This document shows, one piece after another, positions 16,505 through 19,738 of a DNA stretch of 29,000 nucleotides. Both the position numbers and the translations under genes were made by a program. The notes beneath the pieces are model-generated. The model saw only the letters and a program-made list of their open reading frames with translations, had not been told where the DNA came from and ran no database searches. The DNA comes from Candidatus Bathyarchaeia archaeon (lineage in GTDB: Archaea > Thermoproteota > Bathyarchaeia > Bathyarchaeales > Bathycorpusculaceae). The DNA lies in contig DATEAU010000193.1 in the NCBI GenBank assembly GCA_035288165.1, positions 1 through 29,000 on the forward strand, read 5' to 3'. Positions within the stretch are counted from its first letter, which is position 1. Each line of letters begins with the position of its first letter.

Positions 16505-16774
16505 CTAAAGCAGGAGGGACGCGAGAAGTTTGTACAGTTCTTCTTTGGTTTTGATGCTTCTGAAGATGGCTTTGCCGCTCGTGTAAACTCGGAAGGAAAC
16601 GTCTTTGAAGCTCATTTCAAGAATTATGCCGGCTATGGTGTTCTTGAGCTCTGCTTTCTTGCGAATATTCGCTATCGCCTCGTCTTTCTTGTCGTACTTG
16701 AAGACGACGATTATGTCTTTTTCTTCGCCGCAGGTTCCTTCGATTCTTGCCACGTAATCGTCAACGGTGGGCAT
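16505..16774 (-). CDS. Small hypothetical protein with a single Cys; resembles the stand-alone C-terminal domain of archaeal MoeB/ThiF proteins
   Basis: 89 aa. Its ATG overlaps the sufS stop (TAATG). It contains GTCG near the N-terminus and RVYTSGKAIF…KEELYKLL near the C-terminus. Confidence 0.75.
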   Translation of the reverse strand: MPTVDDYVARIEGTCGEEKDIIVVFKYDKKDEAIANIRKKAELKNTIAGIILEMSFKDVSFRVYTSGKAIFRSIKTKEELYKLLASLLL

Positions 16775-18009
16775 TAGAGCTTTTCAATCTCCTTTAGGAC
16801 TTCGATGAAGCGGTCGATTTCTTCGCGTGTGTTGTAGATGTAGAAGCTTGCTCTGGCGGAAGACTGCAGTTTGAAGACTTGGTGCAGAGGCTGTGCGCAG
16901 TGGAAGCCGCTGCGTATCATTATGCCATAGTTGTCGCAGAACAGCGCGACGTCGTGTGACGATAGGCCTTGGACGCTGAACGGGATGATTCCGCACTTCA
17001 ACGCGGTGTCTGTGGGTCCGTGAAGTGTGACTTTGCTGCATTCTTGCATTCGCTTAATCGCGTAGTTGGTCAGGAAGCATTCGTGTCCTTGGACCTGGTC
17101 CATTCCGATTCTTTGCAGGTACTTTACAGCTTCGCTTAAGGCGATGGCGCCGCAGATGTTTGGCGTTCCAGCCTCAAACTTCCAGGGAGGATCGTTAAGG
17201 CTTATGTCGCATTGCTCTTTTGCACCGCTGAAGGAGACTTCTTTTATCATTTCTCCGCCGCCCTGGAACGGGTCCATCTTTTCGAGGAGCGTTTTCTTGG
17301 CGTAGAGTACGCCTATGCCGGTTGGTCCGAGCATTTTGTGTCCAGAGAAAGCTAGAAAATCCGCGTCCAAGTCTCTTACATCTATGGGCATGTGCGGGAC
17401 TGATTGTGCGCCATCCACGAGCATCAATGCGTCGTGTTCGTGGGCTACTTTGGCGATACGTTTGACGCTGTTGATTACGCCGCTGACGTTTGAAACATGG
17501 CTTAGGCAGGCGATTTTTGTTTTGTTTGTGAATTTGCCCTCAAAGTCTTCGTAGTTGAGGGTGCCGTCGGGGTTTACTTTCGCGTATTTTATGGTGAAGC
17601 CGTTTATTTTTGAAATGATTTCCCAGGGGACGATGTTGCTATGGTGCTCCATCAGTGAGACTAGGACTTCGTCGCCCCGTTTGAGGTTGCGGAGTCCCCA
17701 TGAGTAGGCTACGAGGTTTATGGCTTCTGTGGTGCTTCTGACGAAAATGATTTCGGCTGAGTCTTTGGCGTTTATGAATTTGGCGATTCTTTCTCTGGCG
17801 GTTTCGTACATGTCTGTGGCTTCAAGCGACAGCGTGTGCACTGCCCGGTGGATATTGGCGTTGTGGTTTTCGTAAAACTCGCTTATGGCTTCGATGACTT
17901 GTCTGGGTTTCTGGGTAGTGGCTGCGTTATCAAAGTAGATTAACGGGTTGTCGTTTATTTTTCGTTTAAAGATGGGGAAGTCTTCGCGAATCCTGCGGGG
18001 ATCTAGGAT
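16774..18009 (-). CDS. sufS: Group II cysteine desulfurase SufS
   Basis: IREDFPIF…LIYFDNAATTQKP (hand-translated upstream of the ORF-track start), MEHHSNIVPW, DGAQS, FSGHKMLGP, EAGTP, RSGFHCAQP and ARASF. About 411 aa if translation starts at ATC 18009. Confidence 0.93.
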   Translation of the reverse strand: MLDPRRIREDFPIFKRKINDNPLIYFDNAATTQKPRQVIEAISEFYENHNANIHRAVHTLSLEATDMYETARERIAKFINAKDSAEIIFVRSTTEAINLVAYSWGLRNLKRGDEVLVSLMEHHSNIVPWEIISKINGFTIKYAKVNPDGTLNYEDFEGKFTNKTKIACLSHVSNVSGVINSVKRIAKVAHEHDALMLVDGAQSVPHMPIDVRDLDADFLAFSGHKMLGPTGIGVLYAKKTLLEKMDPFQGGGEMIKEVSFSGAKEQCDISLNDPPWKFEAGTPNICGAIALSEAVKYLQRIGMDQVQGHECFLTNYAIKRMQECSKVTLHGPTDTALKCGIIPFSVQGLSSHDVALFCDNYGIMIRSGFHCAQPLHQVFKLQSSARASFYIYNTREEIDRFIEVLKEIEKL

Positions 18010-18512
18010 TGTTTTTCCTCCGCTCCCTTCAGCCTTTTAGATAGGGTTTTGGCTAGTTCTTCCTCTTCTATCGCCTGCTTTTCTTCGAAAGTCAGTTCTT
18101 TGGGAATCCAGTCTGGAGTGTTGCCTCGGTCTGTGAAGTATTTTCTGATTGCTCGTTTTACGGCGCCTACGGCGAGGATGCCGCAGTGGAATTTGACGCT
18201 GGGTAAGCCGCCGACTTCTTCGGTTACTTTTTTCCAGGTTACGTCTTTCCAGGCGGTTTCGAGGCTTAAGCCTTTGATCATTTCGGTGACGATGCTGGCT
18301 GTGGCTATGTTAGCGGCGCATCCGTAGCTTTCGAAGGTGGCTTTCTCGATGATTTGTTGGTCGGTGATTTTCATGTAGAAGGTTATCATGTCTCCGCAGG
18401 CGGGGTTTCCTGCTACTGCCACTACGCTTGCGTCTTCCATTTTTCCCTGGTTTTTCGGGTTTCTGAATAGGTCTAGGACTTTTTGGGTGTAGGGTAAGGG
18501 TACTCGTGACAT
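18003..18512 (-). CDS. iscU: IscU/NifU-type Fe-S scaffold protein
   Basis: Three conserved Cys in ACGDM, GCAA and KFHC (the KxHC motif is IscU-like rather than SufU-like). N-terminal YTQKVLDLFRNPKN and a charged C-terminal tail. Confidence 0.9.
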   Translation of the reverse strand: MSRVPLPYTQKVLDLFRNPKNQGKMEDASVVAVAGNPACGDMITFYMKITDQQIIEKATFESYGCAANIATASIVTEMIKGLSLETAWKDVTWKKVTEEVGGLPSVKFHCGILAVGAVKRAIRKYFTDRGNTPDWIPKELTFEEKQAIEEEELAKTLSKRLKGAEEKQS

Positions 18513-18514
18513 TT

Positions 18515-19738
18515 TTAATCAACTCCTGTTGAGCCGACTATTCCTCTTATTCGGTTCACTGCTTTAGGAAGCACTCCTAAGACATAAGTTATATCCTCTT
18601 CTGTCATGAAGCGGGTGGTTTTCATGAGGATGCTACCGTGGGCTTCGCTGAATTTTCTGCCGATGGCGACGAGGACGTGGCTGGGTTGGAGGAGTCTTCG
18701 GCTGCAGGCGCTGCCGCTGGACACGTATATTCCGCTGAGGCTGAGTTCGATGGTTAAGGCTTCGCCTTCAGCGCGGAGGAAGCTTATGTTAGCGTTGTCT
18801 GGCGAGCGTTTTTCGCCAGTTGCACCGTTGAGTTTTACGTCTATGAGCCCTTTGAATATGCCGCCCACGAGCTTGTCTCGCAGGGAGCGCATGCGGTTCG
18901 CGTTCGCCTCGAAGTCTTGGAATGCCATTTCGGAGGCTTTTGTGAAGCCGACGATGAGCGGCGTGTTCTCGACGCCTGGCCACAGCTTTTGCGTGCCAAT
19001 TTGCCCTTCAAGGATTTTCTCGACGTTTACGCCTTCCCTGATGTAGAGGGCTCCGATTCCGCGGGGACCGAGAATTTTGAAGCTGCTCACGGTCGCCATG
19101 TCCACTTTTAAGTCTTGAACGTTAACGGGGATTCTGCCGTATGCGTCTGAAGCGTCCGTGTGAAAAATGACGCTGGGGTTTTTGTCTTTGACGATGTCTA
19201 CTGCTTCCTTGATGGGTTGGATTGTTCCGAGTTCGTTGTTTACGATTTGCACGCTCACAAGAACTGTCTGTGTGTCGACAGCTTCCTTGAGCTTCTCTAA
19301 GTCGATTGTGCCTTCCGTGTTCACGGGAACTTTGGTTGTCGTGAAACCGTATTTTTGTAGCAGTTCCGCGACATGTAGCACGTTGATGGGTTCGATTTCT
19401 GAAATTACGATTTTGTTGCCTTTCGATTTGTTCGCAAATGCTGCACCCATGAGCGCGAGGTTGTTGGCTTCAGTTTCTCCAGGCGTGAACGTCAGTTCTT
19501 CAAGGATTTTGGCGCCCATGAACTTGCTGATTTTCTGGAACGACCCCATTATGACCTCGAACGCTTCCCACCCGGGCTTATGCGTCAACGTCGGGTTGCC
19601 GTAAGCTTTCTTGCTGAAGTAAGGCAGCATGGCGTCGACGACTTCTTGGGGAACCATGGTGCTGTTTTCGTTGTCGAGGTAGACTTCGTGGGTTATGCCT
19701 TCGTGGGCTTTGAGGAGTTCTTTTACGTTTTCAACCAA
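18515..19738 (-). CDS. IscS/NifS-like (group I) PLP-fold protein with a degenerate active site
   Basis: YLDN, GNP, TEANNLA, VNNELGTIQP, FHTDA, K-ILGPRGIGAL and VSSGSACS are present. The conserved His, Gln, His, Thr and Arg positions are substituted. Start is TTG 19738 or GTG 19828. Confidence 0.88.
   Translation of the reverse strand: MVENVKELLKAHEGITHEVYLDNENSTMVPQEVVDAMLPYFSKKAYGNPTLTHKPGWEAFEVIMGSFQKISKFMGAKILEELTFTPGETEANNLALMGAAFANKSKGNKIVISEIEPINVLHVAELLQKYGFTTTKVPVNTEGTIDLEKLKEAVDTQTVLVSVQIVNNELGTIQPIKEAVDIVKDKNPSVIFHTDASDAYGRIPVNVQDLKVDMATVSSFKILGPRGIGALYIREGVNVEKILEGQIGTQKLWPGVENTPLIVGFTKASEMAFQDFEANANRMRSLRDKLVGGIFKGLIDVKLNGATGEKRSPDNANISFLRAEGEALTIELSLSGIYVSSGSACSRRLLQPSHVLVAIGRKFSEAHGSILMKTTRFMTEEDITYVLGVLPKAVNRIRGIVGSTGVD

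Follow-up and report, generated by a model that had tools for sequence, protein, structure and literature searches.

The stretch of DNA analysed here (hereafter the window) comprises 29,000 nucleotides (nt; positions 1 to 29,000 of contig DATEAU010000193.1) from a Candidatus Bathyarchaeia archaeon, whose genome is represented by a 1.55-Mb metagenome-assembled genome that is 81% complete (GCA_035288165.1). Its minus strand carries four tightly packed genes that encode, in this order, a homologue of the cysteine desulfurase IscS (19738..18515), the iron-sulfur (Fe-S) cluster scaffold IscU (18512..18003), the cysteine desulfurase SufS (ending at 16774) and a protein of 89 amino acids (aa; 16774..16505). 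The first of these, referred to as IscS* in the following, is publicly annotated as 'cysteine desulfurase', a name that is probably wrong. A series of otherwise conserved residues of its active site has been replaced, and the derived state is under strong purifying selection.

The IscS* gene and its eroded active site

The open reading frame (ORF) of IscS* (18515..19738, minus strand; 407 aa) is intact, without a single frameshift or internal stop, and its TAA stop codon (18515-18517) is separated by merely 2 nt from the ATG of iscU (18512), a gap that spans 0-4 nt in orthologs. Both features had been noted in an earlier, sequence-only reading of this DNA and hold up. The TTG at 19738 is the correct start codon, since 70/79 orthologs have an ATG at the same position. 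By profile, the protein belongs to the Aminotran_5 family (PF00266, E=2.8e-57), while missing the cut-offs of the two relevant NCBIfam models, i.e. NifS as the closest one (TIGR03402; 375.8 bits versus a cut-off of 530.75) and IscS (TIGR02006; 302.5 versus 643.2). The AlphaFold2 (AF2) model has the IscS fold with a predicted local distance difference test score (pLDDT) of 94.2, dropping to low values at residues 346-348 of the Cys loop, as expected of a mobile segment. Foldseek places the model in the Class V aminotransferase fold, with template modelling (TM) scores of 0.87-0.90 to structures of IscS, NFS1 and NifS and with the IscS of Archaeoglobus fulgidus, taken from its complex with IscU, as the top match (4eb5_B; TM 0.89/0.96).

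To map individual residues, IscS* was aligned with IscS of Escherichia coli K-12 (L089:3318-4532, minus strand) and 150 representatives of 50%-identity clusters; 94 fully canonical relatives served as a second comparison set. The five substitutions named in the sequence-only reading are all borne out, namely, in E. coli numbering and with the window residue in brackets, H104P (117), Q183D (198), H205F (220), T243V (256) and R354L (371), as are the motifs quoted for them (IEPINV, DASDA, SSFK, WPGV and SILMK). The canonical residue at these columns is found in 140 (H104), 125 (Q183), 126 (H205), 133 (T243) and 134 (R354) of the 150 representatives. The erosion goes further than originally described: A11N, T12S, E236T and R240W each affect columns that are at least 96% conserved in the 94 canonical relatives (R240 100%, E236 96%), and A75E introduces an extra Glu into the phosphate-binding loop, which brings the number of replaced active-site or neighbouring residues to ten. 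In relatives, the columns of H104P, Q183D, H205F/Y, T243V/I, R354L, R240W, E236T and A11N show 84-100% conservation. Likewise, the residues claimed to be intact are indeed kept, i.e. the Schiff-base Lys K206 (221), the pyridine-N Asp D180 (195), N155 (168) and C328 (345) within the SSGSAC motif, to which S203 (218) and T76 can be added.

Along the gene (all on the minus strand), the substrate-pocket loop (E. coli 10-12, canonically S/A-A-T) reads E24-N25-S26 (19661..19669), followed by E88 in the phosphate-binding G-A-T loop (E. coli A75; 19475..19477) and by P117 in place of the His104 that stacks on pyridoxal 5′-phosphate (PLP) and acts in acid-base catalysis (19388..19390). Further downstream, the retained D195 and the replaced D198 share the segment 19145..19156, F220 directly precedes the retained K221 (19076..19081), and T249...W253-P-G-V256 stands for the canonical E236...R240-x-G-T243 (18971..18994). 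The mobile Cys loop with C345 (18704..18706) and L371 in the place of the substrate-carboxylate ligand Arg354 (18626..18628) complete the site.

In E. coli IscS, Arg354 holds the carboxylate of the substrate, while His104 packs against PLP and brings the thiol into position; activity is lost in the variants H104Q, D180G, Q183E and K206A as well as upon mutation of C328, whereas R354K remains active (PMC9978102). Because H104Q or Q183E alone is sufficient to abolish activity (PMC9978102), we strongly infer that the proteins of the IscS* core clade (defined below) lack cysteine desulfurase activity. They probably lack PLP as well, given that Pro, Asp and Leu occupy catalytic sites, both phosphate ligands are gone and a Glu now resides in the phosphate loop.

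Fixation, selection and stepwise descent

The homolog comparison suggested in the sequence-only reading was carried out on 79 full-length IscS* orthologs, each from a separate Bathyarchaeia species genome, and revealed that the substitutions are conserved. P104, D183, L354, W240 and the E10-N11-S12 triad are present in 79/79 orthologs, position 205 is either Tyr (71) or Phe (8), position 243 is Val or Ile in 78/79, and E75 is found in 77/79. The same holds for the retained residues, with K206, D180 and C328 in 79/79 and S203 and T76 invariant or nearly so. Overall, 137/407 alignment columns are invariant. The derived residues are spelled by varied synonymous codons (four for Pro117, six for Leu371 and both codon families, TCN and AGC, for Ser26), and the median pairwise ratio of nonsynonymous to synonymous substitutions (dN/dS; Nei-Gojobori method, NG86) of IscS* is 0.06, lower than for the other three genes of the operon (IscU 0.07, SufS 0.08, 89-aa ORF 0.11). 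Taken together, the low dN/dS and the fixation of residues despite varied codons demonstrate strong purifying selection for the derived state; selection on this copy is not relaxed.

How far this state extends can be seen from database and genome surveys. In a library of 50%-identity clusters, the only entries with more than 45% identity to IscS* were its own cluster, one sister cluster (P0124, 55%) and fragments. Among 200 surveyed Bathyarchaeia genomes, IscS* homologs fall into three tiers: identity is 68-83% within the family of the window (27/27 genomes), several other families reach 60-69%, and still others are at about 50%. Nearly all loci related to the operon are labelled Bathyarchaeota or Bathyarchaeia. 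One contig titled Candidatus Sulfotelmatobacter (Acidobacteriota) carries a Bathyarchaeia-type four-gene operon with 85% protein identity (L010; DATGZD010000055.1) and is probably mis-binned or mislabelled.

In a tree that included 20 loci from the 200-genome survey, the IscS* clade is monophyletic. Its core clade, to which the window belongs, is defined by the signature E-N-E-P-x-D-D-Y/F-K-V/I-C-L at E. coli positions 10, 11, 75, 104, 155, 180, 183, 205, 206, 243, 328 and 354, while a sister subclade (support 0.994) reads E-N-G/A-H-H-D-D-H-K-V-C-L at the same positions. The sister subclade has thus already lost Q183, T243, R240 and R354, with H104 and H205 still in place, and its loci comprise IscS* and IscU alone, without an adjacent sufS. 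Further degenerate lineages branch below core and sister (support 0.998). The last changes, H104P, H205Y/F and A75E, coincide with the core clade being linked to SufS and to the small Cys-containing protein. Since H104 and H205 are still present in the sister subclade, the erosion of the active site looks stepwise, and it is independent of the route by which A. fulgidus IscS lost its Lys. A further distant degenerate relative with Pro at position 104 (P0129) was uninformative, as its only contig has neither iscU nor sufS nearby.

The separation from the Lys-less route is seen in the tree: the A. fulgidus-type proteins (K206 to D, H205 to N, Q183 to A; L108-L112, P0133) form a clade of their own, in agreement with the earlier proposal that IscS* took a different path. 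In Bathyarchaeia, these proteins occur as separate, second IscS-IscU pairs at five loci (L108-L112, in genomes G183, G192, G216, G024 and G099), with R354 changed to Met, Leu or Val in addition to the three replacements above. The genomes of L109, L110, L111 and L112 also carry the core IscS* operon, and the family of the window is among the hosts of A. fulgidus-type pairs. There are thus Bathyarchaeia in which two distinct degenerate lineages of IscS coexist.

Probable pairing with IscU and the partners in the operon

The gene order IscS*-IscU-SufS-89aa is kept in approximately 75/80 species loci, and other core-clade families have the same genes in rearranged form, e.g. SufS-IscS*-IscU-89aa. 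No further Fe-S accessory gene is present in the operon of the window or its syntenic copies. IscU itself (169 aa; 18003..18512, minus strand; PF01592 (NifU_N), E=7.7e-38) has its three Cys, Asp and His intact, and C39, D41, C65, H109 and C110 are invariant. It scores below the cut-off of the SufU-type model (TIGR01994; 67.1 versus 92.5 bits), matches NifU_clost and IscU best, and keeps His109 as well as the LPSVK motif. By these sequence features, the protein is to be regarded as a scaffold-type IscU distinct from the zinc-containing, non-scaffold acceptor SufU.

Modelling of a complex of two IscS* and one IscU, which had been proposed as a check, gave an ipSAE score of 0.70, compared to 0.00 for the best of three controls; the applied mark is reached by 58/80 solved complexes and 2/110 mismatched pairs. 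Three runs share at least 79% of their contacts, with a partner pLDDT of at least 80. The predicted interface corresponds to the canonical docking face, comprising residues 322-334, 343-345 (including Cys345), 362-367 and the C-terminal helix 400-405 of IscS*, and residues 37-40, 61-69 (these two segments carry Cys39 and Cys65) and 106-107 of IscU. Its residues are more conserved than random sets (0.19 versus 0.49 bits), with only 12/10000 random sets being as low. Synteny, the passing model and the conserved interface thus all support the predicted role of IscS* as a partner of IscU. As IscS-IscU complexes have already been solved, though, the pass of the model is to be read as likeness to known IscS-IscU pairs and is no proof of binding.

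Both proteins have additions that co-occur only in IscS*-IscU pairs. IscS* starts with a clade-specific helix (residues 1-14; 19697..19738, minus strand) that is absent from canonical IscS: AF2 predicts a helix at residues 2-10, the region is a gap in 82-94% of canonical relatives, and E3, V5, L8, L9, K10 and H12 are conserved in both the core and the sister subclades. IscU, in turn, has an N-terminal extension (MSRxPLP; 18492-18512, minus strand) and, at its C-terminus, a charged and conserved tail of about 45 aa (18003-18140, minus strand), both of which are found when it is paired with core or sister IscS* and are absent from the IscU of A. fulgidus-type pairs. The predicted interface also takes in the new helix of IscS* (residues 4-11) and the IscU tail (154-158).

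SufS (16774..18009, minus strand) is an Aminotran_5 protein and a type II cysteine desulfurase that exceeds the cut-off of TIGR01979 (482.1 versus 475.1 bits) even as a truncated 355-aa ORF; the open frame reaches further upstream, and the start is uncertain, with an ATC at 18009 as the candidate. From the in-frame TAA upstream to the conserved N-terminus of SufS (17841-18045, minus strand), ATG, GTG and TTG are all absent, and the same is true for most of the approximately 80 Bathyarchaeia loci (the window and L009-L087). The sufS frame is -1 relative to that of iscU and overlaps its 3′ end, and the iscU stop often follows a GGAGG motif and an A-run and lies within A-TAA or A-TAG, giving an ATA codon; in the window, the ATC is located 7 nt past the GGAGG. 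In three loci (L011, L014 and L054), iscU and sufS share one frame with a single stop between them. The sequence of the junction is confirmed by independent DNA contigs. The anomaly may be due to coupling combined with a non-canonical AUH start, or to a fusion arising by frameshift or read-through.

The fourth gene (16505..16774, minus strand) overlaps the sufS stop codon and encodes the 89-aa protein, for which Pfam and NCBIfam profile searches returned no match. All 42 orthologs compared share its Cys15-Gly16 pair. According to AF2 (pLDDT 92.2), the protein adopts a TBP-like half fold similar to the C-terminal domain of ThiF/MoeB-family proteins (TM 0.63); Foldseek against the PDB returned no hit at E<=0.001 and weak TBP-like rows only, and the structural neighbours without family names belong to Bathyarchaeota-only clusters. 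The gene accompanies IscS* of the core clade and has no such link with the sister subclade. With respect to expression, a search of RNA datasets found none that matched the whole operon; the sediment metatranscriptome X25 contained 5% of the words of the IscS* gene, and its contigs over IscS* and SufS are short, 85-95% alike and derived from relatives, so that they do not show transcription of the gene in the window.

Elsewhere in the genome of the window, which has a single IscU, contig C2 encodes a fully canonical NifS/IscS-type desulfurase (L002:1447-2631; 502 bits to the NifS model) with all catalytic residues. Its gene is located beside genes for diphthine-ammonia ligase (Dph6) and a glutamine amidotransferase, downstream of a sulfide:quinone reductase-like gene, and such an extra copy is absent from most family relatives. 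SufE was found neither in the genome of the window at its 81% completeness nor in five relatives from its family with 97-100% completeness. SufBD was likewise not found in this 81% complete genome and was found in only 6/19 high-quality relatives.

The sister subclade presents a different picture. Two genomes with sister-type IscS* (L100), G056 (98% complete) and G058 (94%), have no IscS/SufS-family gene besides this one, which carries R354L, Q183D and T243V and keeps H104 and H205. By analogy, their situation resembles the sulfide-dependent state proposed for A. fulgidus. The idea that SufS replaced IscS catalysis in the degenerate clade as a whole was rejected, considering that the sister subclade has no adjacent sufS and that no desulfurase besides the sister-type protein is encoded in G056 and G058. 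Only the core clade shows the link to SufS.

Known relatives, competing explanations and meaning

The closest precedent is A. fulgidus IscS (IscS2; PDB 4HVK, 4EB5, 4EB7 and 4R5F), the second-best PDB sequence match of IscS* (E about 1e-86). This protein is inactive, donates its loop Cys as a ligand to the [2Fe-2S] cluster on IscU and binds pyridoxamine 5′-phosphate (PMP) even without the Lys (PMC8918507). Both proteins share the type I fold, the position next to IscU and the loop Cys; according to the complex model, IscS* likewise combines an adjacent IscU with a loop Cys that would be able to reach the cluster site. They differ in how the active site was lost. A. fulgidus IscS lacks the Schiff-base Lys (D199) but retains the stacking His and Thr243 and binds PMP, whereas IscS* keeps the Lys, has lost H104, Q183, H205, T243, R240 and R354 and falls into a separate clade. 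The source of sulfur differs as well, in that A. fulgidus is proposed to use sulfide, while IscS* is co-operonic with SufS. For a second archaeal paralog without PLP-binding residues, IscS1 of Methanosarcina acetivorans, a function similar to that of A. fulgidus IscS has been suggested (PMC7585200). It is uncharacterised and, unlike IscS*, lacks the Lys and resides in a cluster without SufS. These two are the only inactive IscS forms named in reviews (PMC8918507, PMC7585200), and our literature search retrieved no paper joining Bathyarchaeia with IscS and IscU and nothing relevant on cysteine desulfurase pseudoenzymes.

Compared to canonical IscS/NifS proteins (E. coli IscS, 1P3W/3LVL; the 406-aa cysteine desulfurase PDB 9WEP; MisS of the minimal IscS-IscU type, MIS), IscS* has 35-45% full-length identity, the same fold and Cys loop motif and the predicted IscU-docking face, yet it stays below the equivalog cut-offs, has the ten replaced residues and carries the extra N-terminal helix. 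The operon is reminiscent of MIS in that genes for an IscS-like and an IscU-like protein are adjacent and chaperones or A-type carriers are missing from it; unlike MIS, it encodes an IscS-like protein with replaced catalytic residues, probably inactive to judge from its sequence, together with a SufS that passes its cut-off. It also has a type II SufS beside an IscU-fold protein, as do the SufS-SufU and SufS-SufE systems, but here the latter is a scaffold-type IscU, SufE was not found and IscS* is present as a third partner. A type II SufS should need a dedicated persulfide acceptor.

The explanation we favour, at a probability of roughly 0.6, is that IscS* serves IscU as a non-catalytic holder or ligand, with sulfur being provided by the co-operonic SufS. 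It is suggested by the retention of the IscU face and the Cys loop together with the A. fulgidus precedent (PMC8918507). In this scenario, the fold and dimer-type architecture of IscS* would be preserved along with its mobile Cys loop and the face to which IscU docks, and the residues for stacking on PLP, contacting its phenolate and phosphate and binding the carboxylate of cysteine would have been given up. An (IscS*-IscU)2-type complex would most likely form, in which IscS* holds IscU and Cys345 may reach the IscU assembly site to act as the fourth cluster ligand and/or as a persulfide relay. The canonical SufS rather than IscS* would supply the sulfur, which could travel directly to IscU, via Cys345 or via Cys15 of the 89-aa protein. 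With SufS as the likely sulfur source, additional replaced residues and a retention of K206 and D180 that a pure scaffold does not explain, this account goes beyond the sequence-only reading, which had proposed a cluster-ligating or scaffolding partner of IscU.

Several points weigh against this scenario. The complex model may pass because the predictor had learned the solved structures 3LVL and 4EB5 of IscS-IscU complexes, and the canonical NifS-like gene on contig C2 means that SufS is not the sole possible sulfur donor. Moreover, a pure scaffold does not obviously need an invariant K206, D180, S203 and T76, all the more so as the A. fulgidus type has lost the Lys. Given this strict retention, PLP or PMP could still be bound. 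IscS* might consequently be a neofunctionalised enzyme that uses K221 and D195 to bind PLP/PMP for altered chemistry, for example on a substrate without a free alpha-carboxylate such as protein-bound cysteine or an amine thiol. The invariant replacements E24, N25, E88, P117, D198, W253 and L371 suggest a defined new pocket, the sister type keeps H104 and H205 and is the sole IscS/SufS-family protein in G056 and G058, and A. fulgidus IscS shows that PMP can be bound even without the Lys (PMC8918507). However, the stacking His, the phenolate-binding Gln, the phosphate ligands H205 and T243 and the carboxylate-binding Arg are all replaced, the phosphate loop has an extra Glu, H104Q or Q183E alone kills the E. 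coli enzyme (PMC9978102), and core-clade loci always have a canonical SufS next to IscS*, which leads us to consider such an enzyme unlikely.

The same acidic replacements invite a second explanation, whereby the former PLP pocket, with E24, E88, D195 and D198 beside K221, is an Fe2+ site that feeds IscU, close to the Cys loop, in the manner of a frataxin-like donor. Three acidic residues are indeed new and basic or His residues have been lost at positions lining the PLP pocket of solved IscS structures (pocket residues according to PMC9978102), and neither the operon nor its syntenic copies contain a further Fe-S accessory gene. Yet this proposal is pure inference from residue chemistry and has no known precedent in the fold, and the acidic residues could just as well neutralise an unliganded Lys or mimic the phosphate, making an iron site decidedly improbable. 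Finally, the loss of so many catalytic residues would also be expected of a decaying paralog or pseudogene left behind after SufS took over, but the intact frame, the dN/dS of 0.06, the derived residues fixed in 79 species through varied codons and the 137 invariant columns refute decay.

Returning to IscS* as a holder or ligand of IscU, a bolder version of this role is conceivable, although we consider it doubtful: Cys345 could be the missing SufE/SufU-like persulfide acceptor for SufS and relay sulfur to IscU, while the acidic former PLP pocket binds a new ligand such as Fe2+. If true, the pseudo-desulfurase would be an active sulfur and/or iron relay, perhaps within the only Fe-S system of many Bathyarchaeia.

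So far, one inactive IscS paralog has been solved (A. fulgidus) and one inferred (M. acetivorans IscS1). IscS* would constitute a second, independent route to this state across an archaeal class, in which the Lys is kept and the ligands of substrate and cofactor are lost, complete with a natural intermediate stage, co-evolved IscU extensions and a canonical SufS recruited into the operon. As neither SufBD nor SufE was found in several near-complete relatives, the hybrid ISC/SUF operon may serve abundant Bathyarchaeia of soil and peat as their principal Fe-S machinery. In these organisms, nature itself would have separated the role of the sulfur donor from that of the IscU partner, providing a system in which to ask what IscS contributes beyond sulfur.

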